DNA from: a virus
Lineage: Duplodnaviria > Heunggongvirae > Uroviricota > Caudoviricetes
DNA length: 64,000 nt
Direction: 5' to 3' (one strand)
IMG/VR virus record: IMGVR_UViG_3300009537_004349
This document shows, one piece after another, positions 9,811 to 27,616 of the stretch. The notes under the pieces were generated by a model. The model made no database searches, had not been told where the DNA came from, and saw only the letters and a program-made list of their open reading frames with translations. A program made the translations under genes and the position numbers. Within the stretch, counting starts at the first letter, position 1. Every line of letters starts with the position of its first letter.

Positions 9811-9813
9811 CTA

Positions 9814-10011: not shown

Positions 10012-10028
10012 TAAATCCTCTGTTCGAT

Positions 10029-11090: not shown

Positions 11091-11353
11091 TTCTTTTCTT
11101 TCGCGACGGAAGCAAAATCTCCCTCCGCCATCAGATACTCCGCCAGTGTGCAATAACGCTTGTAAGGACCTCGTGGCGGATAAACTTTATCCTCACCAGC
11201 ATACCTATACCCCTGGTCTATGTTCAGGTGAATATTATCATCGCCGCCGGTTATGAACGAATGACCCACAAATCTTTTTTCTACAAGTGTTTCTTTATAA
11301 AGATACCTAATTAGTGCCTCACAACTATCTCTGAGTTCTTTCTTGCTTCTCAT
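11087..11353 (-). CDS. hypothetical protein
   Basis: 88-aa ORF. Confidence 0.45.
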   Translation of the reverse strand: MRSKKELRDSCEALIRYLYKETLVEKRFVGHSFITGGDDNIHLNIDQGYRYAGEDKVYPPRGPYKRYCTLAEYLMAEGDFASVAKEKK

Positions 11354-11357
11354 CGTC

Positions 11358-11435
11358 TGGCCCTCCCAGTAGGACTCGAACCTACGACCTACCGCTTAGG
11401 AGGCGGTCGCTCTTATTCCACTGAGCTATGGGAGG
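11358..11435 (-). tRNA. tRNA-Arg (anticodon CCU)
   Basis: CCTCCCA acceptor, TAGCTCAGTGG D-arm, anticodon arm ACCGC-CTCCTAA-GCGGT, GGTTCGAGTCC, CCA. Confidence 0.7.
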
Positions 11436-11558
11436 TCTAAGTGCACTATCACAAATGGACGAGAACCCTTGAGTTTATGCTGGCCACATAACTGCCAGTA
11501 AAGCCCTTCTGTTCTCACCATATATACGTTGTATTCTCCAAGTGCGTATTTATATATC

Positions 11559-11768
11559 TCATATAACCAGTGTTCCATTCTTTACCTGCTCCAAAAATTC
11601 TTCTCCAGGTATGTACCCTGCAGCACGGATGTCCTCATCTTTCTTTATCATGTTGCCGCAAAATCCTGTTTGAGGATTGAAATAGAAAGAAGTTCCTTTC
11701 TTTAGATTAGCAGGATGCAGCATTAGTCCATATATGCTATACACCCAATTCTGCATGCCATTGCTCAA
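11559..11768 (-). CDS. hypothetical protein
   Basis: 69-aa ORF. Confidence 0.4.
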   Translation of the reverse strand: MSNGMQNWVYSIYGLMLHPANLKKGTSFYFNPQTGFCGNMIKKDEDIRAAGYIPGEEFLEQVKNGTLVI

Positions 11769-12051
11769 TGTAAGCCTCCGTCTGCTTCACCAGCTTCTTA
11801 TAGTCTGGTCCCTTCCTAACGAAAAAGATAGCCTTGTATTCTCTATCAGCCATCCCTAACTCTCTATGCTTAATACTGGGGATAATGTTCTCTAGCTGTC
11901 CTGAAAAAGCTTCGATTTCGTGATAGTCTTCAAAGCCGATTACTACTGGTAAGTTGGCCTCGATAAAGCTGTCAGGAATCTCAAGAGTCACTGTCTTGGT
12001 CACTTTTCTTCGCGACACTTTCTTTGCTACTTTCTTTTTTGCCATTTCCAA
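11737..12051 (-). CDS. hypothetical protein
   Basis: 104-aa ORF. Confidence 0.45.
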   Translation of the reverse strand: MEMAKKKVAKKVSRRKVTKTVTLEIPDSFIEANLPVVIGFEDYHEIEAFSGQLENIIPSIKHRELGMADREYKAIFFVRKGPDYKKLVKQTEAYIEQWHAELGV

Positions 12052-13087
12052 AAACCTCGTCTATATCTTCGATGGCCTTACAAATTGCACGGCACCTTCT
12101 ATCTAATTGTTTAAGCTTCATTTTGAAGCTATCGGAATCCATGCCACCAAACATCTTGGCGTTAGCATGGATTTCAGCAATACCTGTAAGAAGCAACGTT
12201 GCTGCCTCTGGCCTTGCTGCAAACTCTGGAACATCCTTCGCCTTCAAACAGTGGATGTCCATATCCATTCTAATCAATCTTCCGACCTTTTCATCACCGC
12301 CACACTTTCGCATCCAAGTCTTATAGGATACTTCGGCGTGATTTAAGAAGTGCCTCTTGCCTTCTTCATCAGTCCGCAAACAGTAGGGCTTTCCACAGTC
12401 ATGGAATACGGTATATTTTTCAAGAGTGAAGTCGTCAAATACCCTTTCGAGTAAAAGCTCTCGGTAATCATGTAGTCCTCTAGGAAGTCTAAAAGACTCG
12501 ATTCCTCTCCTGCCGTTATCGCTTGCCAGCCCTTCAAGTAGTAGGCGTAAGTGATGATGAACTTGTTGTCCATGCTCCAGTACCGACATGCCTTTCGTTT
12601 GCTCACAGGATTGCATATCTTTTACAACCTGTCTTGTCTGTCGTTCTTGTCTATCCAGAGCCTCAATCTGTTCAGATGTGCTGAGATTGCCCTGGTCCCA
12701 CGTTTCTCGCCAGCCTAATTTGCCGCCGTGATTTTTCTTTACTCGCCGATTCGGACGCAACGCTGTCTTATAGCCACGACAGAACTCCTTCACTCCTGGT
12801 CCGGGGCAAAGTGCTATCGCCGTTATAGCGTCGCCAATATCTGGCTCTCGAAATGTGGTATGTTGAATATTTTGAACCCTTAGGGTTCTGGAAACGGCGT
12901 AAAGGTCTCGTTCCGTTTTAACCGAAAGCGTGATAATAGAATTTGATGTGTCATGCCAGACCCTCGCCTCTTCTGGGAATTGAAATATGAAATCTGCAAC
13001 TGCGTGATTTGCTTGAACTAACTGATATCCTGGTGTTAAATCTTCTCGTGTAATGATGTAGAGCTTGTGCTCAGGAACCTACGACAT
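11981..13087 (-). CDS. PTH2-family peptidyl-tRNA hydrolase / HD-domain phosphohydrolase fusion; ATG-TCG-TAG then 366 sense codons (in-frame amber at codon 3, 13079-13081)
   Basis: Own translation: the minus-strand frame is open from 13078 into track ORF 11981..12793. The N-terminal extension (HKLYIITREDL...QANHA...ITAIALCPGPG) matches the PTH2 fold. The C-terminal part has an HD motif (VHHH...VFHDCGKP). AAGGAG is 7 nt upstream of ATG 13085-13087, followed by TCG and TAG. Confidence 0.5.
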
Positions 13088-13228
13088 ATTAAATCTCCTT
13101 AAAATGGTTTTTCCTTAACTCTTGGAACATCTGGAACTCTTCTTTTGAGTACCTGAGGCCCTTAATAATAATCAATCGGATGAGGTCTTTAGACGACTTA
13201 CATCCGTACAGATGATATAGGTACACCA

Positions 13229-13256
13229 TCTGTAATACCTTATAGTCTTTATTGGT
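13229..13256 (-). promoter_or_regulatory. candidate sigma70-like promoter (TTGACA-16 nt-TATAAG) upstream of the PTH2-HD gene
   Basis: Minus-strand TTGACA at 13251-13256 and TATAAG at 13229-13234 with 16-nt spacer; about 140 nt upstream of the SD-ATG. Confidence 0.3.
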
Positions 13257-13842
13257 CATTTGTCAATCCTAAAATTTCCAAAATGCGGTCGTCGGTGACA
13301 ACTCTATGCATTCGGATATCGTGCTGCTCGTGAGGTATGGAATCTATGAGCTGAAAGTCATAGCCTATCCCTATAATCTCGCCGTCGAATTTGGCAAGAT
13401 ATTTGTCATAGTATCCTCCGCCGTAACCTATTCTGTGTCCGTGGTGGTCAAAGGCTACACCGGGCACAATCAGAGCGTCTATGGCATTACGAGGATGGGT
13501 TACGAATCTTTTAGGCTGTGGAAAGCCCTGCCTAAAGTGATTCATGCTTCGTGGGTCATCCACTCGTGTAAACACCATGACCTGGTTTCTGCCACGAGTT
13601 CTAATGGCTGGATACAATGGAGCTATTCCCATAGCCAATAGATGATTGTGAATCTTCTGAGTCCTTACTTCGCTTTTAATAGGGACATATAATCCAACAC
13701 TATCATAATTGCTGATTATGGGGACAAGGTTACGAAAGATATGGGTGCTTCGTTCTTCCTGGTTTTGTGCAGGTTCCGCATCTCTTCGCGCCAGAGTTTG
13801 TTTTCTAATCCTGTTCTTGTCAGCTACAATTATACTGCTCAT
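13249..13842 (-). CDS. 5-formyltetrahydrofolate cyclo-ligase (MTHFS/YgfA family)
   Basis: ALIVPGVAFDHHGHRIGYGGGYYDKYL is the signature C-terminal motif of 5-FTHF cyclo-ligases. Confidence 0.7.
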   Translation of the reverse strand: MSSIIVADKNRIRKQTLARRDAEPAQNQEERSTHIFRNLVPIISNYDSVGLYVPIKSEVRTQKIHNHLLAMGIAPLYPAIRTRGRNQVMVFTRVDDPRSMNHFRQGFPQPKRFVTHPRNAIDALIVPGVAFDHHGHRIGYGGGYYDKYLAKFDGEIIGIGYDFQLIDSIPHEQHDIRMHRVVTDDRILEILGLTNDQ

Positions 13843-14005
13843 GAATTCGTTTAGCGTTGTCTAAATACTTCTCCTGAGATTCTGTGCTGAGACTGTCTAG
13901 ATACTTTCCCATATCGTCGCGTAGTTTTTTCCAATTCCTGGTGCCTGCATAATGTGTGCACAGGAAATAGTAGTATCTGATTATAAGGTTCTCAGTACTG
14001 TTCAT
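13820..14005 (-). CDS. hypothetical protein
   Basis: 61-aa ORF. Confidence 0.35.
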   Translation of the reverse strand: MNSTENLIIRYYYFLCTHYAGTRNWKKLRDDMGKYLDSLSTESQEKYLDNAKRIHEQYNCS

Positions 14006-14351
14006 CGACCAATTCCACGTCCAAGGCAGACAAATAATCAGCGAATGCTAATCTAATATCACCCTTATGACAATTCTCCGTTACTTCGAAGCAAACCCCT
14101 TTCTTATCACTCACATAGACTCTCCAGCCTATTTCTTTACCTAAATCCTTAAAGGACCGTTCCCACACCCAATACCTAAACTCTCCGGTAAAGCAATAAT
14201 GTTGCTTTCCTAGCCGCTGTTTATGAAAAGCCACTAAGGGTCTGGGTATGGAGCGGTGGAACTTTAGTTCCTTATTCTGCCACCAGAGAACGCCATCCTT
14301 ATAGTCTTGTAAAAGATTAATAGGTGGGGTTGTTTGAGTCTTTTTATTCAT
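13992..14351 (-). CDS. hypothetical protein (start at Met23, ATGA-coupled to upstream gene)
   Basis: ATG 14349-14351 overlaps TGA stop of the M23 peptidase gene. Confidence 0.45.
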   Translation of the reverse strand: MNKKTQTTPPINLLQDYKDGVLWWQNKELKFHRSIPRPLVAFHKQRLGKQHYCFTGEFRYWVWERSFKDLGKEIGWRVYVSDKKGVCFEVTENCHKGDIRLAFADYLSALDVELVDEQY

Positions 14352-14818
14352 TTCTCGTCTCTTAAAATACAGGTGGGATTCCATAGACCCTGAGGCTTGC
14401 GCTCTCCTAATTTCCACACCACCGACTCAGTTGTGCCGTGCTTGTATAGCTCTAAATGAAGCATGGTCATAGGCTTACCCTTGTCCTTCTTAAGCACCGT
14501 AGATACTGTTCCTATAATATCTCCCTCAGATACCTGCTGTCCTACCCGGCATTGCGTTTCTATTTCACCGTAGCAGAAAACTCCAGACTTACTCTCAATC
14601 AATACAGATTGGGTGTCGTTCCACCATGGCGTTCCAGCCTTGGGTCCAGTAAAGTTCTCTACCGCTACGACAATGCCATCTTCTATTGCGTAGACAGTTT
14701 CGCCTGGGTCGCAATACAAGTCGACTCCAGTATGAATATCATGTTTCCTGATTGCCCCAAACTTACCTTCCTTACCAGGCCAGGTGTAGTTTTTTAGAGG
14801 GAACATTATCCTTTTCAT
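14348..14818 (-). CDS. M23-family metallopeptidase (LytM-like)
   Basis: HTGVDL...GETVYAIEDGIV and MLHLELY motifs (HxxxD / HxH). Confidence 0.65.
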   Translation of the reverse strand: MKRIMFPLKNYTWPGKEGKFGAIRKHDIHTGVDLYCDPGETVYAIEDGIVVAVENFTGPKAGTPWWNDTQSVLIESKSGVFCYGEIETQCRVGQQVSEGDIIGTVSTVLKKDKGKPMTMLHLELYKHGTTESVVWKLGERKPQGLWNPTCILRDEK

Positions 14819-15559
14819 TTAGCCCCACCATTGACACAGCAGAGGCTTCATATCAAAAATAGTATCTGGGTCCCTGAACACATTGTAATAGTGACAGAAC
14901 AACTTGATGGATGTAGGAATGGAGGGAGCCCAATCTTCCTGCAAATGTTTTAGCAGGTCTTTATCCTTGGCCATTGGAGGTTGCCCAGGGTCCCAATGTC
15001 CAGTGAGCATATTGTAACGCCCAATCTCCATGTAGTCTTTATCCCAGTTTGTCTTATTTTCTCTTCCGGGCTTTAGCAACATGAAAGAATCGTATGGATG
15101 CAAACCTCTTACACCATACTCACTTAGGTCTACTACCACGCTTTCCAGTTGCTTCTTGTACACACGATTCTCGTAGTAATCAATCGTGTCATCGTATCTG
15201 CGCCAGCTACCAAATAGGCTGTCGTCTATATTGTTGTGCGGGTAAAACAGAATAAAACTCTCTGGATGTTCTGTCTCTTGCTCAAAGAAATCAGGAGGAT
15301 GTGGCTGCCGTCTAGCTTTGTTCTTCAAATAGTCAAGAAACAAATCAATGTTTCCATAGTACAACGGAGCCTTATCGGCATCCTCGTGGTATACATTTAC
15401 CAAAACATCTACACACTTTTGCTCGTCCGACAGAAACGCTTTGTAATCATCAAAGTCAGACTCGTAAATGTTCTCTTCCCACTCCTCGTCTATGTTCAGC
15501 TTATCATTAGGTGTCGGAGAAAATCCGTAACCAATCGACTTATGAATCCTAATTCCCAT
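14819..15559 (-). CDS. hypothetical protein
   Basis: 246-aa ORF, acidic, no motif recognised. Confidence 0.5.
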   Translation of the reverse strand: MGIRIHKSIGYGFSPTPNDKLNIDEEWEENIYESDFDDYKAFLSDEQKCVDVLVNVYHEDADKAPLYYGNIDLFLDYLKNKARRQPHPPDFFEQETEHPESFILFYPHNNIDDSLFGSWRRYDDTIDYYENRVYKKQLESVVVDLSEYGVRGLHPYDSFMLLKPGRENKTNWDKDYMEIGRYNMLTGHWDPGQPPMAKDKDLLKHLQEDWAPSIPTSIKLFCHYYNVFRDPDTIFDMKPLLCQWWG

Positions 15560-15945
15560 TATCTTTCGCTTTCATGTATCAAGCACTCGTAACTTTTCTT
15601 CCAAAGCCTGCCGAATGTAAATATTGTAACCTTTTCTATTGTGCACACACCGGTAAGCTTTTCGCCCCTCTTAACCCTATTGTAGAGATTCGCCATAGCT
15701 ATTGTGTTGTGTTCTGGATATTTGTGAAAGCAATGCCACAAATCATACGCACGTGTATACTTAGGAAATATCACCATCTCACATACTAGACATAAAGCTA
15801 TCAACATCATATGCGATGCGTATAGTATCGGTTGCTCTAACGTCCAGCTGCCAGTAAATAAAAGGTTTAATCCCGGTATTAGTATGTAAACAAAACTAGT
15901 CCACCAAGCTTTGTGGATTTTTCTAAACAACTTTGCTTTTCGCAT
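15559..15945 (-). CDS. hypothetical membrane protein
   Basis: 128 aa, multiple hydrophobic helices. Confidence 0.45.
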   Translation of the reverse strand: MRKAKLFRKIHKAWWTSFVYILIPGLNLLFTGSWTLEQPILYASHMMLIALCLVCEMVIFPKYTRAYDLWHCFHKYPEHNTIAMANLYNRVKRGEKLTGVCTIEKVTIFTFGRLWKKSYECLIHESER

Positions 15946-16114
15946 CTATGTAATCCTGAACAGAATACCTATAGAACGCAGGGTTTGGCTTCACTATGCC
16001 AGAGCATATCCACTTAACTGATGGTGGAGAGAACCCGGTATCTTCTATAATCAGTCTGTTTACGTTTCTACCAGACAACAGAAAGTGATACAGTCCATAT
16101 ATAGCTCTATCCAT
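15923..16114 (-). CDS. hypothetical protein
   Basis: 63-aa ORF. Confidence 0.35.
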   Translation of the reverse strand: MDRAIYGLYHFLLSGRNVNRLIIEDTGFSPPSVKWICSGIVKPNPAFYRYSVQDYIDAKSKVV

Positions 16115-16650
16115 TACCGACTCTTATACTTATCTACTAAGTTCTTAGCCAGCCTAAATGAACTCTCATTTTTCTTATGAGCAGCCATATCATCACGAAC
16201 TTTTGTAACAACCTCACCCAGCCAATTCTTACCATCCCAAGTCTTACGACTTTGAGTTTTAGGGTCGCCTTCTGCCAAACCAATTCCCCAAATCTTATCA
16301 TAAGGACTGGCTTCAACCAAAGTGGTGCCTGCTGTTTTTACCAGAGCATCTTTATGATTACTATTCTGACTGAACTTACAATAGTTCCCCACATACACAA
16401 GTTCACGTGCCACCTTAGCCCAAGCAGGAATGTCAAAACCTTTAACCTGCCTGCCAAGTTTCTTTTGCACACCAGGATGGTCTTCCGACATAATCTTTTT
16501 GGCAGTGGAATAGTCCTCGAACAATACAGCCTTCATGAACATCATAAACTGCTCTGCTCTGTTAAACTTCATTCCCTCGAACTCAAACGGGCTGCTACTC
16601 CACTGAGAGAAGGGTCCGTTCCAAAAGAATGTAAACTGCTCAGCCATCAT
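16114..16650 (-). CDS. NADAR (YbiA-like, DUF1768) family protein
   Basis: FFWNGPFSQWS...EGMKFNRAEQFMMFMKA...KLGRQV...LVEASPYDKIWGIGL matches the YbiA/NADAR domain. Confidence 0.6.
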   Translation of the reverse strand: MMAEQFTFFWNGPFSQWSSSPFEFEGMKFNRAEQFMMFMKAVLFEDYSTAKKIMSEDHPGVQKKLGRQVKGFDIPAWAKVARELVYVGNYCKFSQNSNHKDALVKTAGTTLVEASPYDKIWGIGLAEGDPKTQSRKTWDGKNWLGEVVTKVRDDMAAHKKNESSFRLAKNLVDKYKSR

Positions 16651-17677
16651 GATTCTCCATCACAGCCCAACCAGCCTGTGGTCGGATGGTAAAGTCATCA
16701 TCTTGTGCTGCACCAACAAGCCCAGCAACGAACTTCATTTTGATATCTGTACCTAGATATTCCCATACAAACGGGACAGATGAAATACCTAGAGGAAAAT
16801 CATCTGGATTATTACCAGAGAATCCGCCACCAGTATTCCACTTCTCAACGAATGGATTCTTTCTATCGCGTACCAGGTAGGGAAACAAGGTATTCACCCA
16901 TCCAGTCACATACGGTCCACCAGAACCACCACCAATCTTGTACAGCGAACGCCAGAAGTCTTTGTCTACATTTCCCTCTGCCGACTCTTTTACTTTTTCA
17001 AGCACAGGTAGTAGATGGTCAGTCCACCACTCAAGCCCGAACTCGCTCATGTAAGAGGCTTTGTCGATTAGCTTCTGCCAATCTTCAGGCTCTCCCTCAA
17101 GAGTAATGCTTGGGAAACCACAAAGAGTTCGGCAGATATAGTCAAAGTAGTTCTGCATAGCATCCATAAGTACAACTTCAGATGCTGCCTTCTCTAACAC
17201 ACCAGTTGTGCTAAAGTTACATACGATTAGGTCTCGCTTCTTACCGATATAGTCTGATATCTTATCGCTAAACTCATCGAAGCAACCCTCCCAATCATTA
17301 TCAGGGGAGCCTTTGACGAAATGGTCTCTGCGAACAATAATCTTTTTCTTACCCTCAAAGTCTACAAATTTCTTACGTAGCTTCTCAGCGTTAAGATTGA
17401 TATGTGTTGCAAGTCCACCAGAAATCGTGAGCCAGAACGCATCAGGGGATAGGCTCAAAGGACGATGTTGGTCAAACGCCATATGAATAGCTGACAATAG
17501 ACCGTGCTTTGTATCATTGATTAGCGGTGTATTAGACCAGGCTTCAATAGGTGGCTTCTCTAGCTCACCATATAACTTTCGCTTGCCCAGCTTGTTATCT
17601 AAAATAACTTTCGTATCTACTGTGTGCAATGGCTCCGTGGCCATCTGAACATCGTCTACTTGAAACTGAATGGACAT
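16640..17677 (-). CDS. hypothetical protein (345 aa)
   Basis: Long ORF; glycine-rich segments GGGSGGP, GGGFSG; no assignable family. Confidence 0.55.
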   Translation of the reverse strand: MSIQFQVDDVQMATEPLHTVDTKVILDNKLGKRKLYGELEKPPIEAWSNTPLINDTKHGLLSAIHMAFDQHRPLSLSPDAFWLTISGGLATHINLNAEKLRKKFVDFEGKKKIIVRRDHFVKGSPDNDWEGCFDEFSDKISDYIGKKRDLIVCNFSTTGVLEKAASEVVLMDAMQNYFDYICRTLCGFPSITLEGEPEDWQKLIDKASYMSEFGLEWWTDHLLPVLEKVKESAEGNVDKDFWRSLYKIGGGSGGPYVTGWVNTLFPYLVRDRKNPFVEKWNTGGGFSGNNPDDFPLGISSVPFVWEYLGTDIKMKFVAGLVGAAQDDDFTIRPQAGWAVMENHDG

Positions 17678-17697
17678 TTGCCTACCTTTATTCGAAA

Positions 17698-17774
17698 TGG
17701 TAGGCCCGGAGGGACTCGAACCCCCAACCTGGCCGTTATGAGCGGCTCGCTCTGACCAATTGAGCTACGGGCCT
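17698..17774 (-). tRNA. tRNA-Met (anticodon CAU; elongator-type or Ile2 precursor)
   Basis: AGGCCCG acceptor, TAGCTCAATTGG D-arm, loop CTCATAA, GGTTCGAGTCC, CCA. Confidence 0.7.
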
Positions 17775-17915
17775 TTATTATTTATAGAGACTCCAGTCTT
17801 ACTTTTAGAATCTCTAATGCTTGTACAGCAGCCTCAACCTCTTGAGATGTACCAAACTCCGCTGGCTCATCCATGATTTCCTGTTGAAACTTTTCAAGCT
17901 CTTTAATTGCTTCTT

Positions 17916-18140
17916 TCATTCCACTAACTCCAACACTCTGCGCATCACCCTAGCGATGCCTTTCTTACTGCAACCATATCCACCAGACGACTCTAGCATG
18001 TCAATCACCTTGAATGCTAGTTCACCAATCACAGCATCTTCAGCAGCAGCTTTCAGGGCAGGCTTTACATCATCAGAGGCATTGGCTCTGATAACATAAT
18101 CATAAATATGCTCTTCATCACCAATCTTAGCAAACGCCAT
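17916..18140 (-). CDS. hypothetical protein
   Basis: 74-aa ORF. Confidence 0.4.
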   Translation of the reverse strand: MAFAKIGDEEHIYDYVIRANASDDVKPALKAAAEDAVIGELAFKVIDMLESSGGYGCSKKGIARVMRRVLELVE

Positions 18141-18486
18141 ATTTATTCTCCATACTCATGATATGCCTTTCGAGACGGGCAATCTCATTGTTCCATCTTT
18201 CCACTGATTGGAGGCTAATCTTAAGACTCTGTTTCATACCTCGAAGGCTTTGTCTTCGTCTCTTTACATAACACTCAATAGCTTCCTGCTTTGAAGTGAA
18301 GAAACTTCTGTTGTATTCTAATCGAATCCAGCCACTAGATGTTTTAATTCGATAACCATATGCATCTTTATTTTTGGTTTTAACCTTGTACTTGGTCATG
18401 CCATCTCCTGGGTATACAACATACATCCATTGTCCTGGTCGCAATCTCTTGTACAATTTATCTAGCTCTGTTTCTTTCTTAGCCAT
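18127..18486 (-). CDS. hypothetical protein
   Basis: 119-aa ORF. Confidence 0.45.
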   Translation of the reverse strand: MAKKETELDKLYKRLRPGQWMYVVYPGDGMTKYKVKTKNKDAYGYRIKTSSGWIRLEYNRSFFTSKQEAIECYVKRRRQSLRGMKQSLKISLQSVERWNNEIARLERHIMSMENKYGVC

Positions 18487-18701
18487 CTTAGGTCTTCCTT
18501 GATATCTTCTAGATTGGCATTAACTATCTCAGGCTTAGCACTAATTATCAATCTTTTATCTAGGTCTAATCCTCTAATAGCCTCTCTTATTCTTCGCTTA
18601 ACCTTATTCCTCACTACTGCTTTCTTGCTCACCTTCTTGCTCACCCGAATCCACACTTTGTCCTTGGAGTCTTTTGAGAAATAGATTTTCATGTTCTTCA
18701 T
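18462..18701 (-). CDS. rnpA: ribonuclease P protein component (RnpA-like, short form)
   Basis: VSKKVSKKAVVRNKVKRRIREAIR matches the RnpA RNR motif (A-x-x-R-N-x-x-K-R-x-x-R); downstream ...ISAKPEI...L..DL..L also RnpA-like. Confidence 0.65.
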   Translation of the reverse strand: MKNMKIYFSKDSKDKVWIRVSKKVSKKAVVRNKVKRRIREAIRGLDLDKRLIISAKPEIVNANLEDIKEDLRWLRKKQS

Positions 18702-18936
18702 TTTCCCAATCCTTTATAGACTCAGAGTGCCTCTTTAGGGTATCGAAGTGCTTACCATTAGCAATCTTCTCAAAGACTTCACGAGGCAAGCGGACTGTCA
18801 CTCGTTGACCATCAAACTCCCATTGTGGTTTGCCCAGCTGGAGGTAGATAGCATCAGGCTCCATGCACTCTAGATACAGATGAAAATCGGTATCATCATC
18901 TGCATTCTTGTATTCCACGGTAACCTTGGTGCTCAT
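18604..18936 (-). CDS. hypothetical acidic protein
   Basis: 110-aa ORF. Confidence 0.45.
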   Translation of the reverse strand: MSTKVTVEYKNADDDTDFHLYLECMEPDAIYLQLGKPQWEFDGQRVTVRLPREVFEKIANGKHFDTLKRHSESIKDWENEEHENLFLKRLQGQSVDSGEQEGEQESSSEE

Positions 18937-18937
18937 A

Positions 18938-19540
18938 CTACTCTCCTTGCACTACCACATGGGTAATATTGCCCTGGTCATCTAGTCGGACATAACCACG
19001 GAGTTGGTCATCGAAAGGCTCACAGTCGAAACCATACCCCATGACATCATCAAAGTCATCTGCCGGGTCAAGGTCAGAATCTCGCTCGCTGGAAGTAAAC
19101 CAGTTAGACAAGTCAGTCGTCTCAGCAAATTGTGCATCAGTAAGTGGCGACGTAAACTCTGCATCGAGTGCAGGGCGGTTGTTCGCACACCAATCTACTA
19201 TAGCCTGACGGCAAGTGTTGTAAAGTGCTACTCGTTCAAGTGCACCAGGCCCAGGCCCGGTCGAAGCTGGGACAGAATCATCATCCTCTGTATCAACCTC
19301 GTCGCCTGTATCTGTGGGCATTACAAAGGGAGTATCGTGAGAAATCCCAGCAATGTGCAGATGAGCAGCATAAACCTCAAAGCTTTCTCTCATATAGGGC
19401 TGGAAGTCATCCAAAGCCTCGACCGCATCTTCTCGTGTGAAAAATACTCGGTCATCATGAATTCTTGTCTCGTTAGGCAGCGAACCATCTCCTGGCTTTG
19501 CTGCAATCACATAAATCTCGTGTGCTACACCATTAGGCAT
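18938..19540 (-). CDS. hypothetical acidic protein
   Basis: 200-aa ORF. Confidence 0.5.
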   Translation of the reverse strand: MPNGVAHEIYVIAAKPGDGSLPNETRIHDDRVFFTREDAVEALDDFQPYMRESFEVYAAHLHIAGISHDTPFVMPTDTGDEVDTEDDDSVPASTGPGPGALERVALYNTCRQAIVDWCANNRPALDAEFTSPLTDAQFAETTDLSNWFTSSERDSDLDPADDFDDVMGYGFDCEPFDDQLRGYVRLDDQGNITHVVVQGE

Positions 19541-19955
19541 CTTTATTTTCCTTTTTAGTTAATACCTTGTAAAAACCAGAAATATCTTTTAGCTCCACGT
19601 TCCATCGCCCGTTCTTGTATTCGAGGGATTCACCAACTTTAATGAACCCTCCACTTTCCCAGGCCCATGAGACATACATGGAGCTATCACATGACACATA
19701 GTATCCTTCTTTTGCCAGAGCAATAGCTATCGCTAATCTCTTGGTAAAGTTCCATGCTAGTGTCCATCCAACAAAATAAAACACTCTGTTTTCACCTGAC
19801 GACACGGCACGTTTAATGTCGCTTTCCACCTTTGCCAGCTTTTTCTGGAGCCATAGTGGACGCTCCTCTACCATAGCCTCGGCTTTCTCGATCATATCAC
19901 TATACTTTACGCCGTAAGCTTTCAGTAAAGTATGTGCGTCAGATGCATTTAGCAT
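19533..19955 (-). CDS. hypothetical protein
   Basis: 140-aa ORF. Confidence 0.5.
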   Translation of the reverse strand: MLNASDAHTLLKAYGVKYSDMIEKAEAMVEERPLWLQKKLAKVESDIKRAVSSGENRVFYFVGWTLAWNFTKRLAIAIALAKEGYYVSCDSSMYVSWAWESGGFIKVGESLEYKNGRWNVELKDISGFYKVLTKKENKDA

Positions 19956-20165
19956 TTACTTAACCTCTCTTGCCACCCAGTTATGATTCTTCCACTGGTT
20001 AAATTGCTCTTTAGTCACAGCTATAAGAGTGGCACCGTCACAATTTCTGGCTGTGATAAACTCTTCGTCTCCATTACTCTTAACTCTGTAGAAAGCATAA
20101 AGCGGCGTACTATCAATTCCGGTATAGCCATACCTAGATTCGTCTAATACAACCTTAACGCTCAT
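19956..20165 (-). CDS. hypothetical protein
   Basis: 69-aa ORF. Confidence 0.45.
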   Translation of the reverse strand: MSVKVVLDESRYGYTGIDSTPLYAFYRVKSNGDEEFITARNCDGATLIAVTKEQFNQWKNHNWVAREVK

Positions 20166-20766
20166 CAGCCATTAGCTTTTCTACAATGTTATACACGCCA
20201 GGATTCAATTCCTTAATCCTGGGCACTAACTCGTGCCTGATATAGTTCCTCTTGTACTTTGTGTCTACATTAGATGGGTCTTCTACCCAGTTATAACCAT
20301 GCCAGTTCATGTAGTTTTCGATATCTTCCCGCTTCCACAAACGGAATGGCCGAATACAATTTTTGTTACTGTATTTAATGGTACCAGGATATCCTCGAAC
20401 CATCGTACACATGATGTACTCTTCCAAGCAATCATCGAAGTTGTGGGCAAGAATAACCGGCTCTGAAAAACTATGAAAGAAGTTGTACCTCTTCTCTCTC
20501 CACCAAGCCTCCCTAGATTCCCCCTTTGGTGGCTCCTCTTCTAAGATGTGCCACTTGCAAGTAACGCCGTAGTATTCCTTCATAGACAGCACAAAATCAT
20601 ATGCCTCGTCAGAATACAGCCCTGTCTTGTGGTTTACATGTAGCATTCCCAAGAGATTATCTTTCCTTGACTCTTTGTAGAGCCAATGAAATGCTGCCAT
20701 GCTATCGATACCACCACTCACAGCAACCCAATACTTTTTAGGCAATGGATGTGTCAGTCTGAACAT
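20155..20766 (-). CDS. tilS: tRNA(Ile)-lysidine synthetase-like PP-loop ATPase (TilS N-terminal domain)
   Basis: VAVSGGIDS PP-loop, HVNHKTG and AHNFDDCLE motifs as in the TilS catalytic domain. Confidence 0.65.
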   Translation of the reverse strand: MFRLTHPLPKKYWVAVSGGIDSMAAFHWLYKESRKDNLLGMLHVNHKTGLYSDEAYDFVLSMKEYYGVTCKWHILEEEPPKGESREAWWREKRYNFFHSFSEPVILAHNFDDCLEEYIMCTMVRGYPGTIKYSNKNCIRPFRLWKREDIENYMNWHGYNWVEDPSNVDTKYKRNYIRHELVPRIKELNPGVYNIVEKLMADER

Positions 20767-20954
20767 AGTTGTTCACCAAGTCTTCTTAGAGTTCTAAGAT
20801 AACCAGGGAGCCGCATCGCCTTTTCCTGAACAATATTAGCTCCCATGCCACCGAATCCTTTATCTAGTCTCACCTTAGCTGCGTATGCCCTATAAGCATC
20901 TCGCACTTCAACTTGACATCTTTTAAGAATCCGTTCCTCTTGTTGCTTGTCCAT
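20754..20954 (-). CDS. hypothetical protein
   Basis: 66-aa ORF. Confidence 0.4.
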   Translation of the reverse strand: MDKQQEERILKRCQVEVRDAYRAYAAKVRLDKGFGGMGANIVQEKAMRLPGYLRTLRRLGEQLCSD

Positions 20955-21345
20955 CTTCTACTGCCTGCTTAATCAAATCTGGTGGAAGCACATCATCCAC
21001 TGCTACCACATCGTAAAAACGAAGGGATGTAAGTTCGTATAGTTTTTCGAATTGCTCATCAGTTAGACCGCTGAGATTGAGTTCATAGTGGTCATTTGTG
21101 TCAATACCGAGACTATCTAAGAAGTCTACCATGCCACCCGCATCAATTTCATCTAGGCCATAACAATACTGACCAATTTCGTTTCTCTTCAACTCCTCGA
21201 TATTCTTCTTCTGACAGTACAAATTAGCCAGCTTCTTGTCATGAAAAACTTTTACAGGCTCACCATTACTACCACCTTGGTTGTTGTAGTATACTTCATC
21301 GTTATACTCGAACCCAATCCTAACTAGGACGTACATCGTGCTCAT
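20923..21345 (-). CDS. hypothetical protein
   Basis: 140-aa ORF. Confidence 0.5.
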   Translation of the reverse strand: MSTMYVLVRIGFEYNDEVYYNNQGGSNGEPVKVFHDKKLANLYCQKKNIEELKRNEIGQYCYGLDEIDAGGMVDFLDSLGIDTNDHYELNLSGLTDEQFEKLYELTSLRFYDVVAVDDVLPPDLIKQAVEDGQATRGTDS

Positions 21346-21748
21346 CTTCTTGTTCCTTTCTTACTAACTTGGCCAGCTTCTCTACGAAAAACTTAGGAAA
21401 CGAAAACCACGCTTGCCTATCCAGGTGCTCATAGTAATCATTCAGAGACGGAATCCAGCCCAAATCTTCCTTGATATGTTGTTCGGCGATGTCCCTCACC
21501 TGTACTTTATTACCATCGCTGTTGGTAATATAGGTCGTCTTTATAATTGTTCCATCTTGCTTCTGAATAAAATCACCAAAAGCTTTTTCAACTATGAAAC
21601 ATCCAAAAGCATGATGTAATGCTGCTCTGTGTCTAGCATCAGCCATTACAGCCTTTGAAGAGTCCATAAAGTTGTGAATCTCGATATAGTCTTCAGGTAT
21701 GCCTCCCCATAGCTTGGCACTGTTTCTTGCGTGCCTGTATGGTTTCAT
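21320..21748 (-). CDS. hypothetical protein
   Basis: 142-aa ORF. Confidence 0.5.
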   Translation of the reverse strand: MKPYRHARNSAKLWGGIPEDYIEIHNFMDSSKAVMADARHRAALHHAFGCFIVEKAFGDFIQKQDGTIIKTTYITNSDGNKVQVRDIAEQHIKEDLGWIPSLNDYYEHLDRQAWFSFPKFFVEKLAKLVRKEQEDEHDVRPS

Positions 21749-22158
21749 ATTGGCAACTCCTCCACTACAAGCTTGGCAATCTCTGCATCAGACAGGGACT
21801 TGATAGAGTCCTTATTCCCCCCTCTAATTTTCACGAGAATGTCCCTGCAAATCTCTGGGGTAAGAGCCTCGGCACCAAATTCTTGATTAAACATCTCTAC
21901 TCTGGACCAATCAGGAGCCTCTACTAGATTCTCTACATCCAGGTCACACAGGTTTCTTATAGCCATCAACATTACGTGTTCTACATAATGCCTATCACAC
22001 ACGGGGATGCTTAGTTGTCCCTTGAACATCAGCCGATTATTCACGCCACCTTCGCAGGCTGAACCCATATTCCATACACAAGTTAATGGGCTCGTGTCTT
22101 CACCGTCTTTTCTTTTTTCTATGTTCTGTGAAAGAAAGACTGCACTTTCTTTAATCAT
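21745..22158 (-). CDS. hypothetical protein
   Basis: 137-aa ORF. Confidence 0.5.
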   Translation of the reverse strand: MIKESAVFLSQNIEKRKDGEDTSPLTCVWNMGSACEGGVNNRLMFKGQLSIPVCDRHYVEHVMLMAIRNLCDLDVENLVEAPDWSRVEMFNQEFGAEALTPEICRDILVKIRGGNKDSIKSLSDAEIAKLVVEELPI

Positions 22159-22268
22159 CGTCGTCTCTTTTCCTACACTTAAGTTTATCTTGTTCCTTCT
22201 TTTTATTTTTAATAGGGCCAGCAGAATTGCGAAACCACGCTATCACTGCGCCCCAATCACGAGGCTTT

Positions 22269-22472
22269 CTAGCTTTGGTCTGCTTCTTTTGCTTTTTCCT
22301 CCGCTTTCCTTTTGACATTTTTGATACCCTCGTTTAGATTGCCGAGAAAGACACCAGCGGTTCGTCCTAGAAACTCTACATAGGTCTCCTCATAAGCAGG
22401 ATCGTTGTATGTCTTGAAACTCCAGTATCCCAGAGTAAACATGCCAACACCAATCACAAGCCATTCTAGCAT
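22269..22472 (-). CDS. hypothetical small membrane protein
   Basis: 67 aa with N-terminal TM helix. Confidence 0.4.
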   Translation of the reverse strand: MLEWLVIGVGMFTLGYWSFKTYNDPAYEETYVEFLGRTAGVFLGNLNEGIKNVKRKAEEKAKEADQS

Positions 22473-22825
22473 TTCTTCTTGCCCCTTTTCTTTCTAATAA
22501 CTTTAGTCCTTTTAGTAGGTTTTTCTCTTAGGTCCATAGTTGCTCGGGCTAGCAGCACAACCAATTTGCCCTGTTCGATTTTATCCTCGTACAACTTACC
22601 TAAGTATTTCTTTTCCTCTTGAACGAATTTCTGATACAGCTTTTCATCTTCCCAGCCGTTGTTAGATATGGCCACAAAAGTTTTAACCAGAGCCTCAGGA
22701 AATTTCTTACGCTGTTGTTCGTTAGTTTCAGGCTCATAGTTTGTGGACTTAGGTATCCTGCTCCTGCGTTTTCGTCTTTTCTTTTTGGGCATAAATCCTA
22801 ACCTTACCTGATAAAATATCCACAA
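22466..22825 (-). CDS. hypothetical basic protein
   Basis: 119 aa, K/R-rich termini. Confidence 0.45.
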   Translation of the reverse strand: MWIFYQVRLGFMPKKKRRKRRSRIPKSTNYEPETNEQQRKKFPEALVKTFVAISNNGWEDEKLYQKFVQEEKKYLGKLYEDKIEQGKLVVLLARATMDLREKPTKRTKVIRKKRGKKKC

Positions 22826-23023
22826 ACTCTTGTAGACTTATTATTCGTTTTATGCTTCCACTAAAGCTCCACTTCTCAAACTCTGTACGTTCATTAAGGG
22901 AAAAACTCTTACCATCCTTAAAAATGGCGCAACCCAACTCATCAATGGTGCGTTTCAAACAAAGCACATCGCAATAGATTGTAAAAATATAATCGGGAAC
23001 GCCAACAGGATTTTTGTTTAGCT

Positions 23024-23097
23024 TGGCTGGGGAAGAAGGACTCGAACCCTCACTACTTGGGCCAGAACCAAGCGGCCTGCCATTAGCCGATTCCCCA
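23024..23097 (-). tRNA. tRNA-Gln (anticodon CUG)
   Basis: TGGGGAA acceptor, anticodon arm CTTGG-TTCTGGC-CCAAG, GGTTCGAGTCC, CCA. Confidence 0.65.
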
Positions 23098-23334
23098 TTT
23101 TGATTTAGAATAGCCATATGAAAGTAAATGTTAGAGACCATCTATTTAAGTCATAGCTTCTGGCATCAGCACAAATACTCGTTGAATTATCTGACCAACA
23201 TGGATGAGCAAATGCATGTATCATCCATATGTCTTTATTCAAGAACCTTACAATAGGATGCACAGGCTTGGGCGGTAATTTTGGCGGAGGATCAAATGGT
23301 CCACATAGCATCATAGCTATCACCGCCGCCTTTA

Positions 23335-23592
23335 TCATTTGTCTACGTATTCAACTACATTATCCAGGAAGTGCAAAACAGTTTTCTTAATAAACTCTTT
23401 AGACATGCATTCGGTATAGCACACTACCTTATCACCCTCTTTGACGAAACCAAACTCGCCAAAGCCTACACCTTTTGCTCCCCACTGCAATAGGAAGCCG
23501 CCGTCATTATGTGGGTGTTTGTCCCAAGTTTGTAATTCGGTATAAACAAACTCTGGATTTTCTCTTGCCGCCTTGAGTTCTTCAGGCGTCAT
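23335..23592 (-). CDS. hypothetical protein (start at Met43 after the tRNA)
   Basis: Track ORF 23335..23718 begins inside tRNA-Gln; ATG at 23590-23592. Confidence 0.45.
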   Translation of the reverse strand: MTPEELKAARENPEFVYTELQTWDKHPHNDGGFLLQWGAKGVGFGEFGFVKEGDKVVCYTECMSKEFIKKTVLHFLDNVVEYVDK

Positions 23593-23606
23593 ATCGAATA
23601 ACGATT

Positions 23607-23680
23607 TGGCTGAGGAGGAAGGACTCGAACCCTCATTACCTGGGCCAAAACCAGGCGTCCTGCCATTAGACGACTCCTCA
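23607..23680 (-). tRNA. tRNA-Gln (anticodon UUG)
   Basis: TGAGGAG acceptor, anticodon arm CCTGG-TTTTGGC-CCAGG, GGTTCGAGTCC, CCA; paralogous to the 23024 tRNA. Confidence 0.65.
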
Positions 23681-23698
23681 TCGGGTTGTTGAGGACCG

Positions 23699-23890
23699 TC
23701 ACTTTGATTGCCAGTCATGATAAGCTCTCCATTCTTCGCTACTTTTCCACTTCTGACCTATATCAGTGTGTAGAAACTCAGCAAATTTTTCAATAAAACC
23801 AGGCTGATGGAACAGTTCGTCAAAGCCTCTGTGAAATCTAGAGGCCCAAAACAAATCGTGCTGAATTTTTAGTAGTTCCACCCGTCTCAT
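23699..23890 (-). CDS. hypothetical protein
   Basis: 63-aa ORF. Confidence 0.4.
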   Translation of the reverse strand: MRRVELLKIQHDLFWASRFHRGFDELFHQPGFIEKFAEFLHTDIGQKWKSSEEWRAYHDWQSK

Positions 23891-23927
23891 ATTTGTTATT
23901 ATACCTGGTTAGTCTCCATCGTCAAGT

Positions 23928-24302
23928 TCATTTTGTCATTTGGGCTCGTGCTTTGATGTATTCCATTAAAGGGATAACATTAACATGCTTTTTGAACCAC
24001 TCGTTTCTTAGTCTCAAGACCTCTTGAGAAAGCTCGGCAGATGGCTCTACTCCTAATTGCTTGGCTACATTCACGGGATTTAATCCACTGTATTTGCTCA
24101 CTGCCCATAAGGGATGAACAATCCTACGTGCCATTGTGGTAGCCCAGCTAAGACTATTCCAGAAAAACTTACCTCGCATTTGTACGGGCTTGCCATCTAC
24201 CAGAACAATGTATCTGCCCTCAGGATTAAACTTTGAGAAGTTATATCGGGCAGCCTTGTTAATAAGTTTCTTTACTTCCAGTTCTTGTTCTTCAGTAAGC
24301 AT
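23928..24302 (-). CDS. hypothetical protein
   Basis: 124-aa ORF. Confidence 0.5.
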   Translation of the reverse strand: MLTEEQELEVKKLINKAARYNFSKFNPEGRYIVLVDGKPVQMRGKFFWNSLSWATTMARRIVHPLWAVSKYSGLNPVNVAKQLGVEPSAELSQEVLRLRNEWFKKHVNVIPLMEYIKARAQMTK

Positions 24303-24485
24303 CTATCTTATCACCTTAAGTTTTCTTTCCTCTGTCAGCTCTATCTTTCTTTCGTCTAGTAAATCCCACATATACTTGCGCGCTTCATAAGGCAAGCCAT
24401 CCTTAAAACCCATAACTCTTGCCAATTCCGTTGGACATAATCCATCTGGGTTTAGGCTAAGAATATATAGAATTACCCCTCTCAT
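24303..24485 (-). CDS. hypothetical protein
   Basis: 60-aa ORF. Confidence 0.4.
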   Translation of the reverse strand: MRGVILYILSLNPDGLCPTELARVMGFKDGLPYEARKYMWDLLDERKIELTEERKLKVIR

Positions 24486-24826
24486 TTTAGTTCGTACTTA
24501 TACAACAGCCTCACAAGCATTTTCGCTCTAGCAGAAGACACATCGCACTTTAACATTTGCACATAATCATCTGGATTTTGGGATACTGCTGTACACCTTT
24601 CATAAAAGTACAGGGCGTTATTAAGATTACCTTTTTTGAACTCCCTGTCGCCCCATCGCCTTAACACCCAGGCAATAAATGAAAGCTTCTTATACAAGTA
24701 GCTCATTGCCCAGTCCCGGAGCAGTACATCATTTATAAAGAAGATTTTTCTACGCCAGCCTCTTATGCCATCTAGATTGCCGTGATGAAGTAACCATTCT
24801 GCGACAATCTTCTTCATTCTCAACAT
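24482..24826 (-). CDS. hypothetical protein (start moved to Met18, downstream of the rnpB 3' end)
   Basis: Track ORF 24482..24877 overlaps the RNase P RNA P4/P1 3' strands; ATG at 24824-24826. Confidence 0.4.
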   Translation of the reverse strand: MLRMKKIVAEWLLHHGNLDGIRGWRRKIFFINDVLLRDWAMSYLYKKLSFIAWVLRRWGDREFKKGNLNNALYFYERCTAVSQNPDDYVQMLKCDVSSARAKMLVRLLYKYELK

Positions 24827-24832
24827 GTTCGA

Positions 24833-25240
24833 ATCTCGGAGTAAGCCTGTAAGCTGGATTCTGTCTAGTGCAATCATTCATCTAGGCTTACCATTACTGA
24901 TAAGCTCAAGCCTCTTACCCGCCAGCACATCGAGCCAATGTATAGCTGGTCTATTTTGAGTTGCAACACCTAGAGTTTAGCCGTTTCACCCTTGTTACTT
25001 ACCTGGGGCAGTACCTTCCACAACTAGTGAGAGCGGCCATCCCCTTATAGGCTCTCAGGGTTTTATTGGTTGTAACAAGACTCGTCTCTGTTCCACTAGT
25101 CCTCACCTCACGGTGGATGGGCGTTACCCACTAGGTTGCTCTGTGTTGTCCAGACTTTCCTCTGCATAGCCACAAGCTAAAGTTTTCAGTGGCGGCGGAC
25201 GCAAGCTCCTTGTATGCAGCGATTGCACGGATTACTCCGT
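24833..25240 (-). ncRNA. rnpB: RNase P RNA, bacterial type-A-like (rnpB)
   Basis: Minus strand carries conserved RNase P blocks in order: AGGAAAGTCTGGAC, GGGTAACGCC, ACAGAGA...AACC, GATGGCC, CAGGTAAG...GGGTGAAA, GGCTAAACTC, CAAAATAG, GGGTAAGAGGCTTGAGC, CCTAGATGAATGA, ACAGAATCCAGCTTA. P1 pairing CGGAGTAA (25232-25239) with TTACTCCG (24837-24844). No ORF at or above the 60-aa track cutoff across this 365-bp gap. Confidence 0.75.
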
Positions 25241-25244
25241 TATG

Positions 25245-25451
25245 TTAGCCTGTAACCCGAACGTCCTTAGCTTCCTTACCCTTTTTGCCTTGAACGACAT
25301 CGAATTCCACGCTCTGTCCATCTTGCAATGACTTAAAGCCATCACTTTTGATAGCGGAGAAGTGTACGAATACATCTTGTCCTCCGTCATCAGGAGCGAT
25401 AAAACCGTACCCCTTAGACTCACTAAACCACTTTACTGTACCTGTTGCCAT
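25245..25451 (-). CDS. cold-shock protein (CspA family)
   Basis: [34 protein letters not shown]... has both RNP1 (KGYGFI) and RNP2 (VFVHF) motifs. Confidence 0.9.
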
Positions 25452-25618
25452 TTGTTTTGTTTTTCCTTTGTTAAAATTTCCCTACTATTTTTAATGTATG
25501 GCTGAAAGAATGCAGGGAAACTTCCTAAATCCATATACTCTAGAGGCATAATGGTACAGTCAGGTCTTAACATAATCCTGTACATTCCCAATACACTTAT
25601 AGAAAACTTCTCATTCAT
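25433..25618 (-). CDS. hypothetical protein
   Basis: 61-aa ORF. Confidence 0.35.
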
Positions 25619-25619
25619 A

Positions 25620-26018
25620 TTACAATTTCGTTTCTAGACTTTCATCATATGGAAAGTTGCGGTCGTTATCATCTCTAAACAACTGACATGCCGAGCCTTG
25701 TCCAATGAGAAGTCTCCAGATAAACTTAGTTCCTCCTAAGTTAAAGTATGCCAGATACTCAGGAAAAATATCAGCCTTTCCTGCCTTAATTCTATTGCCC
25801 GCCTGTTGTTCTAGGTATCTAAACACATCAGAATAATCTCGGCGACTAAAGGGATAGTCCTTCTCGTTGTAGGCAATATTCTCATCGTCTAGATAATCTA
25901 CATTGCTAAGATGGTCAACTATCTGAGCTAACTTATCTCGCCCATTCTCTAGCCGCTTCTCTTCCTCAGCAAAATGATTCCTTACTGATTCTCTAAACGC
26001 CTCTTTGTCTAGTTCCAT
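25620..26018 (-). CDS. hypothetical protein
   Basis: 132-aa ORF. Confidence 0.5.
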   Translation of the reverse strand: MELDKEAFRESVRNHFAEEEKRLENGRDKLAQIVDHLSNVDYLDDENIAYNEKDYPFSRRDYSDVFRYLEQQAGNRIKAGKADIFPEYLAYFNLGGTKFIWRLLIGQGSACQLFRDDNDRNFPYDESLETKL

Positions 26019-26031
26019 TTCGTTTCCTCGC

Positions 26032-26106
26032 TGGAGCCTGGAATGGGGTTCGAACCCATGACTTCCTCCTTACCAAGGAGGTACTCTACCACTGAGTTAC
26101 CCAGGC
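26032..26106 (-). tRNA. tRNA-Thr (anticodon GGU)
   Basis: GCCTGGG acceptor, anticodon arm CCTCC-TTGGTAA-GGAGG, GGTTCGAACCCC, CCA. Confidence 0.7.
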
Positions 26107-26107
26107 G

Positions 26108-27607: not shown

Positions 27608-27616
27608 ATTAACCCT

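Follow-up and report, generated by a model that had tools for sequence, protein, structure and literature searches.

A short RnpA-family protein gene linked to a class-A RNase P RNA gene in a tRNA-rich, phage-like genome

Does a phage that brings many tRNA genes into its host also bring an enzyme to mature them? This question is raised by a 64,000-nucleotide stretch of DNA (the window, below) from the IMG/VR virus record IMGVR_UViG_3300009537_004349, in which a 79-codon open reading frame (ORF) that resembles rnpA, the bacterial gene for the protein subunit of RNase P, lies several kb from a gene for a bacterial-type RNase P RNA and among 27 tRNA genes. RNase P counts among the core enzymes of the cell. 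The tRNA cluster of phage T4 is the classic case of phage-borne tRNA genes whose products require 5' processing, and to our knowledge T4 has neither an RNase P RNA nor an RNase P protein gene and uses the RNase P of its host, as tRNA-carrying phages in general are understood to do. T4 and the window both bring tRNA genes, and the window alone adds genes for an RNase P RNA and an RnpA. An earlier note on this DNA had claimed "a complete viral RNase P holoenzyme"; both genes are indeed present and their linkage is conserved (below), while the word "complete" holds for gene content only. We put the probability at about 0.75 that the two gene products assemble into a phage ribonucleoprotein, an RNase P whose protein subunit is minimal and which would mature the 27 or more tRNAs of the phage.

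The rnpA-like gene and its product

The features of the protein gene and its immediate surroundings are as follows:

18462..18701, minus strand: rnpA-like gene, ATG start, TAG stop (18462..18464), 79 amino acids (aa)
18573..18638, minus strand: helix with the RNR motif, through which RnpA binds P RNA, codons 22-43, KKVSKKAVVRNKVKRRIREAIR
18645..18653, minus strand: W-I-R, codons 17-19, in the beta strand aligned with Bacillus subtilis G47-S49
18702..18715, minus strand: putative ribosome-binding site, purine-rich, AAAGGATTGGGAAA, adjoining the ATG
18604..18936, minus strand: 110-aa ORF in a different frame, sharing 98 nt with the rnpA-like gene, no Pfam match

The predicted product, MKNMKIYFSKDSKDKVWIRVSKKVSKKAVVRNKVKRRIREAIRGLDLDKRLIISAKPEIVNANLEDIKEDLRWLRKKQS, is strongly basic (16 Lys and 9 Arg, isoelectric point 10.6). 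A search of the PHROGs with it gave no match. It matches the Pfam family Ribonuclease_P (PF00825) with 48.7 bits and an E value of 8.7e-13, well above the gathering cut-off of 22.3 bits, and the alignment places ORF residues 2-77 on profile positions 26-107 of 109. A custom hidden Markov model (HMM) made from 94 full-length bacterial RnpAs recognizes it at E 1.4e-24 through HMM positions 27-109 only, and a sequence search of the PDB returned RNase P proteins as the best chains (B. subtilis 1a6f at E 0.003, and its relatives). These matches indicate that the ORF is genuine and that its similarity to RnpA is far beyond chance. The earlier note had staked its RnpA assignment on a PF00825 match and on structural similarity to RnpA, and both have been found (for the structure, see below).

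A search of 5.8 billion proteins found short relatives (P0001-P0008, 65-105 aa, 55-91% identical), with the ordinary bacterial RnpAs (~112-127 aa) ranking after them, and an exhaustive phmmer run added P0020-P0022 and P0027; the exact 79-aa product is not present in a collection of 15 billion proteins. A 5,796-aa protein, P0024, matches the query in five stretches (E 2.5e-8), probably through Lys-rich low-complexity similarity. When 12 family members (42-59% identical to the window protein) are aligned with the 94 bacterial RnpAs and the B. subtilis protein, the RNR signature quoted in the earlier note, which is residues 22-43 (KKVSKKAVVRNKVKRRIREAIR), falls on the bacterial RNR motif, with R31-N32-K33, K35, R36 and R39 on B. 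subtilis R60-N61-R62, K64, R65 and R68. R31, N32 and R36 are invariant in 12 of 12 family members and 94 of 94 bacterial RnpAs, and K33, K35 and R39 remain basic. The VSKK strand is conserved too in this alignment, and Y7 lies on B. subtilis Y34 (Tyr in 9 of the 12 family members).

The AlphaFold2 model of the 79-aa protein, made from an input alignment of 20 homologues, has a mean predicted local distance difference test value (pLDDT) of 87.7 and a predicted template modelling score (pTM) of 0.73. Its elements are strands at residues 4-8 and 17-19, a helix at 28-42, a strand at 51-55 and helices at 57-61 and 64-78, in the order strand-strand-helix-strand-helix, and it opens with a beta strand, helix alpha1 being absent. 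Foldseek comparison of the model with the PDB gave RNase P proteins as all of the top 15 matches, with query-normalised TM-scores (TMq) that span 0.61-0.79 for the RnpA matches (4jg4, 0.79; 1a6f, 0.78; the Thermotoga maritima holoenzyme chain 3q1q_A, 0.61); RnpA chains of Staphylococcus aureus, Escherichia coli and T. maritima are also among the top matches, and unrelated folds are listed only at E > 0.1. The model is not the complete RnpA fold, as it comprises all of that fold minus the first helix: the beta sheet, RNR helix and C-terminal helix are predicted to be kept, and the N-terminal tail and helix alpha1 to be gone. Sequence and model together indicate that the ORF encodes a true but minimal RnpA-family protein.

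The phage protein shares with the bacterial RnpA/C5 proteins (structures 1A6F of B. subtilis, 1NZ0 and 3Q1Q of T. maritima and 2LJP of E. coli) their family, PF00825, the RNR motif, the basic character and the predicted core of beta sheet, RNR helix and C-terminal helix, and, as for bacterial RnpA systems, there is a cognate class-A RNase P RNA, here encoded near the phage gene. It differs from them in its length (79 aa versus ~110-130 aa), in having no equivalents of B. subtilis residues 1-27 (the tail and alpha1, including F16 and F20), and in having Trp and Arg where bacterial RnpA has Gly/Ala and Val/Ile/Ser. Bacterial rnpA lies inside the rpmH-rnpA-yidD-yidC operon, whereas the phage gene lies outside it in a phage-like genome; the rpmH-rnpA-(yidD)-yidC context is not seen in the window, where no rpmH, yidD or yidC adjoins the gene.

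How much of the protein is missing, and is the truncation native? The earlier note had put the loss at about 40 N-terminal residues; the alignments give ~27-30 instead (tail and helix alpha1), with M1 near N28 of B. subtilis RnpA, and positions 1-25 of PF00825 and of the custom HMM have no counterpart in the ORF. In-frame stop codons lie 4-9 codons 5' of the start in the window and in the related loci L001, L002 and L006 (four lineages), so no longer form of the protein is possible. The 12 family members share one start position with the common pattern M-x(0-4)-[KR]-I-Y-K-S-K, then K-V-W-I-R-V-S-K-K. A 30-position HMM of bacterial alpha1, run against all six frames of the window and four related loci, gave a best E value of 2, although so short a model has little power. 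An N-terminus encoded upstream, whether frameshifted or as a separate peptide, was rejected on the in-frame stops and the blank alpha1 search, and the upstream 110-aa ORF was rejected as the missing N-terminus because it is absent in the other lineages and its tail evolves freely. On the sequence evidence, the truncation is native.

A bacterial precedent for such a protein is found in two metagenome contigs, L137 and L138 (JGI Ga0210017_1001213 and Ga0210019_1004406), which carry an rpmH-rnpA-yidC operon (L137 9822..10827) with an alpha1-less RnpA. The stop codon of rpmH (L34) immediately precedes the RnpA ORF and the YidC gene comes after it; the RnpA is ~83 aa long (its start codon is not fixed) and its Pfam match runs from profile position 25. 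RNase P is essential and this protein is presumably the only RnpA of that bacterium, so an alpha1-less RnpA is evidently compatible with function. The L137/L138 form (like P0010 and P0084) resembles the window protein in its truncation point, its start at the first beta strand, its intact RNR motif and its size (~82-95 aa), and RnpA of this type is ~45% identical to the window protein (measured for P0010); it differs in its cellular context, in having no RNase P RNA in the locus and in lacking the W17/R19 pair (below). P0046 (L011 2..388, 87 aa) was rejected as a precedent for short RnpA, as its start is mis-called and yidD follows it; an alpha1 segment, NRLKKRKQFNYIHQKGK, is in frame upstream in that locus, with no ATG, GTG or TTG available before the segment.

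Comparison of the rnpA-like gene with its relative in L007, whose product is 91% identical, shows that 21 of the first 68 codons differ, 19 synonymously and 2 non-synonymously, which indicates that the rnpA-like gene is under purifying selection. The overlapping 110-aa ORF is a real gene as well, since its non-overlapping part has 24 synonymous and 5 non-synonymous codon differences from L007. Within the overlap, all four codon changes in the 110-aa frame are non-synonymous, and of the five codon differences in the rnpA frame four are synonymous and the fifth is not, so the rnpA frame is the constrained one, and the acidic tail of the 110-aa ORF is an out-of-frame reading of Lys-rich rnpA codons. 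This ORF was not found upstream of rnpA in L001, L002 or L006, so the overlap is a local accident of the window lineage. The 63 nt around the rnpA start, within which the putative ribosome-binding site falls, are free of substitutions between the window and L007, and their flanks differ every ~8-10 nt. Because of the overlap, relative P0001 was called as 65 aa by one source's gene caller. A gene of this kind is easily missed: the NCBI equivalog model TIGR00188 rejects it (below), the PHROGs have no family for it, and one gene caller shortened a relative.

What would the loss of alpha1 mean for the protein? In bacteria the 5' leader of precursor tRNA (pre-tRNA) sits in a cleft, one wall of which consists of the tail and alpha1 (PMC4919922, PMC8447495, PMC10731613); in the T. 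maritima protein the N-terminal tail is ordered upon P RNA and alpha1 aids alignment of the 5' leader (PMC8447495), and leader position -4 is recognised by conserved aromatic residues of RnpA (PMC10731613). Half of this leader-binding cleft is missing in the alpha1-less phage protein. In B. subtilis the aromatic residues concerned are F16 and F20 in alpha1, and Y34. Two residues on the remaining sheet set the phage family apart. In the column of B. subtilis G47, Trp is present in 12 of 12 family members and G, A, T, S or C in 90 of 94 bacterial RnpAs (no aromatic is among the five commonest bacterial residues listed), and in the column of S49, Arg is present in 12 of 12 family members and the bacterial residues are mostly V, I, S, L and T. 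W17 and R19 stand at i and i+2 of one strand and so share a common face, opposite the hydrophobic V16, I18 and V20; by topology this should be the face that alpha1 covers, the floor of the cleft. A Trp and an Arg on this sheet face are as expected if the leader-binding surface was rebuilt after alpha1 was lost, and the invariant Trp17 and Arg19 probably replace the aromatic and basic leader contacts that went with it.

RNase P RNA and tRNA genes

The other two parts of the putative system are as follows:

24834..25238, minus strand: class-A RNase P RNA of bacterial type, presumed catalytic partner (209.5 bits with RF00010, model positions 1-367)
1243..62406, minus strand: 27 tRNA genes, all on one strand and dispersed between ORFs, presumed substrates

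The rnpB-like RNA that had been reported 6.5 kb from the protein gene is real, as its RF00010 score of 209.5 bits is more than twice the gathering score of 100 bits. It shares the strand of the protein gene and lies 6,132 nt upstream of it (6.5 kb start to start). CR-I (GAGGAAAGUC), L15 (GGGUA) and CR-V (ACAGAAUCCAGCUUACAG) are intact, and there is a large insertion in P12; a P12 expansion is excised in vivo in Thermodesulfatator indicus (PMC9945441).

Is the proximity of the RNA and protein genes a chance event? Five family loci are informative on this point (the window, L001, L002, L006 and L134; L007 ends before the expected RNA position), and each of the five has a full-length, same-strand class-A RNase P RNA 5' of its RnpA-like gene, among dispersed tRNAs. 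The sizes of these RNAs range over 275-470 nt, and their RF00010 scores and distances are:

Window: RNA 209.5 bits; gap to protein gene 6.1 kb
L001: RNA 179.8 bits; gap to protein gene 5.5 kb
L002: RNA 210.3 bits; gap to protein gene 1.4 kb
L006: RNA 149.6 bits (6399..6712); gap to protein gene 1.4 kb
L134: RNA 164.6 bits (2442..2716, 275 nt only); gap to protein gene 1.5 kb

This conserved arrangement indicates that the pairing in the window is not coincidental, and co-inheritance in all five loci makes joint function the simplest explanation. A ~200-aa ORF just upstream of rnpA, seemingly syntenic in all loci, was considered as a conserved partner protein and rejected, because homology between its two subgroups could not be demonstrated (E 0.026 over 14 residues).

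Examples of the tRNA genes are those at 1243..1320, 17698..17774, 39695..39779, 50995..51070 and 61450..61535, and the nearest to the rnpA-like gene is the tRNA-Met gene at 17698..17774. The 3'-CCA is encoded in 26 of the 27, as suits a class-A RNA, in which RCCA is paired by the GGU of L15 (PMC4919922, PMC10731613). Many of the tRNAs begin immediately 3' of the stop codon of the preceding ORF, so that leader position -1 is A in 15 of the 27 and position -2 is A in 17. In the tRNA trailers, CGA or CGG recurs 1-4 nt past the CCA and is followed by a purine-rich run that resembles a ribosome-binding site.

How widespread are such genes? Among 50,697 GenBank phage records no match was found by megablast with 10 kb, tblastn with the protein or blastn with the RNA. 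A full-length bacterial RnpA query against the GenBank phages gave full-length matches only in small unannotated faecal "Bacteriophage sp." contigs and in Staphylococcus records, all of which we regard as bacterial DNA. In IMG/VR, a scan for peptide patterns yielded no relative. A scan of IMG/VR for the CR-IV and CR-V motifs found at least 120 loci, and no RnpA homologue was seen in the flanks (~0.5-12 kb per side) of 120 of these. Full-length class-A RNase P RNA (147-269 bits) within dense tRNA arrays is present in 6 of 13 loci from contigs of 122-463 kb; the six are L016, L025, L029, L031, L045 and L076, on contigs of 168-463 kb. A tmRNA is present in L029 and also in L014, which was scanned and in which RNase P RNA was not found. 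The huge-phage arrays and the window both have a class-A RNase P RNA amid tRNA genes; the arrays have dense tRNAs and no RnpA in their flanks, whereas the tRNAs of the window are dispersed between ORFs. The RNA-only huge phages presumably borrow the RnpA of the host or act as RNA alone. RNase P RNA genes thus seem to recur in huge phages and seem not to have been described there, and the RNA-plus-protein arrangement is, as far as the present scans have seen, confined to the small clade of the window.

The full-text literature that we searched, whose coverage is incomplete so that this is absence of evidence, contained no phage RNase P RNA or protein, only the inactive RNase P-like RNA of camelpox virus (PMC3001073), and the huge-phage paper PMC7162821 has no mention of RNase P. 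The camelpox/orthopoxvirus RNA does not process pre-tRNA in vitro (PMC3001073), and it bears some resemblance to RNase P RNA but has no viral protein partner, whereas the window has both an RNA with the score of a full class-A RNase P RNA and a gene for an RnpA homologue.

A phage RNase P and the alternatives

What the analysis shows is the family membership of the protein, its fold, the native truncation, purifying selection, and the conserved linkage to RNase P RNA and tRNA genes. From these we infer that the protein would assemble with the RNA of the phage and activate its catalysis, what W17/R19 may do, and that the phage may benefit, in steps as follows: the protein and the phage class-A RNase P RNA would be expressed from the same strand, and the protein would bind the RNA through its RNR helix and stabilise its active fold, with the catalytic core and Mg2+ sites, which is the general role of RnpA (PMC4919922). 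The ribonucleoprotein would then remove the 5' leaders of phage tRNAs that are embedded in long transcripts, and where the tRNAs abut stop codons each cut would also separate the upstream mRNA segment. Loss of alpha1 and gain of W17/R19 may relax leader preference or shift it to A-rich, coding-derived leaders. The phage could benefit through extra RNase P capacity for its 27 or more tRNAs, or through independence from a limiting or shut-down host enzyme. The more specific proposal of a self-sufficient RNase P with the smallest natural RnpA (76-79 aa), its leader face rebuilt on Trp and Arg and tuned to precursors that abut stop codons, is tentative, and we give it slightly less than an even chance.

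Several observations weigh against a phage RNase P. The protein does not reach the cut-off of TIGR00188 (rnpA), scoring 30.5 bits versus 38.35 bits through profile positions 27-69 only; this shortfall is expected because the protein is without a quarter of that model. Helix alpha1, which aligns the leader in bacterial enzymes (PMC8447495), is absent, and an alpha1-less protein could be a weaker or a different cofactor. The window RNase P RNA is without 43 model positions after P12, which from our own reading of class-A structure we take to be the P13/P14 region. The RNA-only huge-phage contigs mean that the RNA may work with host RnpA, in which case the phage protein is perhaps dispensable. 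Finally, the identity of the carrier as a phage is drawn from its PHROG matches, its one-strand, ORFan-rich layout and the 291.7-kb contig from which it comes.

Could the protein act on the RNase P RNA of the host, where it would replace or compete with host RnpA and retune the enzyme to phage precursors, while the phage RNA might use host RnpA? Bacterial RnpAs are broadly interchangeable between species (PMC10731613, PMC3308948) and the RNA can stand alone in other huge-phage contigs, which carry it with no RnpA nearby; however, a phage RNase P RNA accompanies the protein gene at 1.4-6.1 kb on the same strand in each of the five informative loci, and we consider this explanation unlikely, at roughly one chance in ten. 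About equally improbable is that the protein has left the RNase P role and serves as a decoy inhibitor of the host enzyme, as a general RNA chaperone or as an mRNA-decay factor. Such a departure would fit three observations: part of the site for the substrate leader is gone with alpha1, the family-specific W17 and R19 mark an altered surface, and the TIGR00188 score is below its cut-off. Against it, all of the P RNA-binding residues of the RNR motif are kept, the gene has a linked P RNA and tRNA genes all around it, and an alpha1-less RnpA in a canonical bacterial operon means that truncation alone implies no loss of the RNase P role.

Is the carrier a phage at all? The window could instead be part of a small cellular or plasmid genome and encode that organism's own RNase P. 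There are no capsid, terminase or tail genes within its 64 kb, and the lack of capsid and terminase genes, like the alpha1-less RnpA of a bacterial contig, suits a cellular origin. The neighbouring genes argue otherwise. The gene is adjoined by no rpmH, yidD or yidC, and the tRNAs all lie on one strand with short ORFan genes between them; the family loci in general consist of short same-strand ORFs, mostly without Pfam matches, and they also carry an HNH endonuclease (L001), a cold-shock protein and a Peptidase_M23. PHROG matches in the window include a T4 Rnl1-like RNA ligase, NAD synthetase, nicotinamide phosphoribosyltransferase and phage families of unknown function, and a 430-aa ORF has its closest relative (39%) in the 595-kb uncultured phage LR756511.1. 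No rRNA was found in an Rfam scan of the whole window, no ribosomal protein genes were found among the proteins scanned, and the genes that neighbour rnpA are on a JGI/IMG contig of 291,701 bp. Phage identity is therefore a well-supported inference from context, and a non-viral origin appears very improbable. Least credible of all is a functionless, decaying fragment of a captured host rnpA, since, although the gene is shorter than bacterial rnpA and is overlapped over 98 nt by the upstream ORF, its differences from L007 are 19 synonymous versus 2 non-synonymous with the rnpA frame constrained in the overlap, its start is shared by the 12 diverged relatives, and its AlphaFold2 fold is confident.

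The self-sufficient enzyme of the tentative proposal above would, if real, be the first RNase P holoenzyme known to be encoded by a virus, and a natural experiment on the minimal duties of the RNase P protein. Specialists on phages and on RNase P alike would be surprised by an RNase P ribonucleoprotein of viral origin. A phage with both a catalytic RNA and its protein cofactor would extend the list of virus-owned translation-related machinery, and would suggest that phages whose long transcripts yield dozens of tRNAs are limited by the capacity or specificity of RNase P. The alpha1-less RnpA, under purifying selection, and the compact RNAs (275-470 nt) would be a ready-made minimal system in which one can ask which function is essential: RNA folding and metal affinity, or leader binding.

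Other genes of the window

The only Pfam match among the neighbours of the rnpA-like gene is a PP-loop ATPase 1.5 kb upstream. The additional features are as follows:

20155..20766, minus strand: PP-loop ATPase (PF01171, TilS/MesJ-type)
17698..17774 and 48632..48707: two tRNAs with anticodon CAT
46836..47942, 54803..55498, 56399..58333 and 58337..59497, minus strand: T4 Rnl1-like RNA ligase and an NAD+ salvage set
45231..45308, minus strand: tRNA with anticodon CTA (amber suppressor; Pyl according to ARAGORN)

The PP-loop ATPase gene is syntenic with the rnpA-like gene, being present also in L001 (8386..8994) and L007 (3552..4163). One of the two CAT tRNAs could be a tRNA-Ile with a lysidine modification, and this would be a sign of a phage module for tRNA modification. 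The Rnl1-like RNA ligase is a possible tRNA-repair enzyme, and the members of the NAD+ salvage set are an isochorismatase-family protein, NAD synthetase and nicotinamide phosphoribosyltransferase.

The CTA tRNA is the sole tRNA of the window without an encoded CCA. The rnpA-like ORF ends with TAG, and recoding of this stop codon was considered and rejected on ORF-length statistics: ORFs gain no more length when TAG is opened than when TGA or TAA is, and TAG ends 22 of 102 long ORFs. Readthrough of the TAG of the rnpA-like ORF would append only 21 residues.

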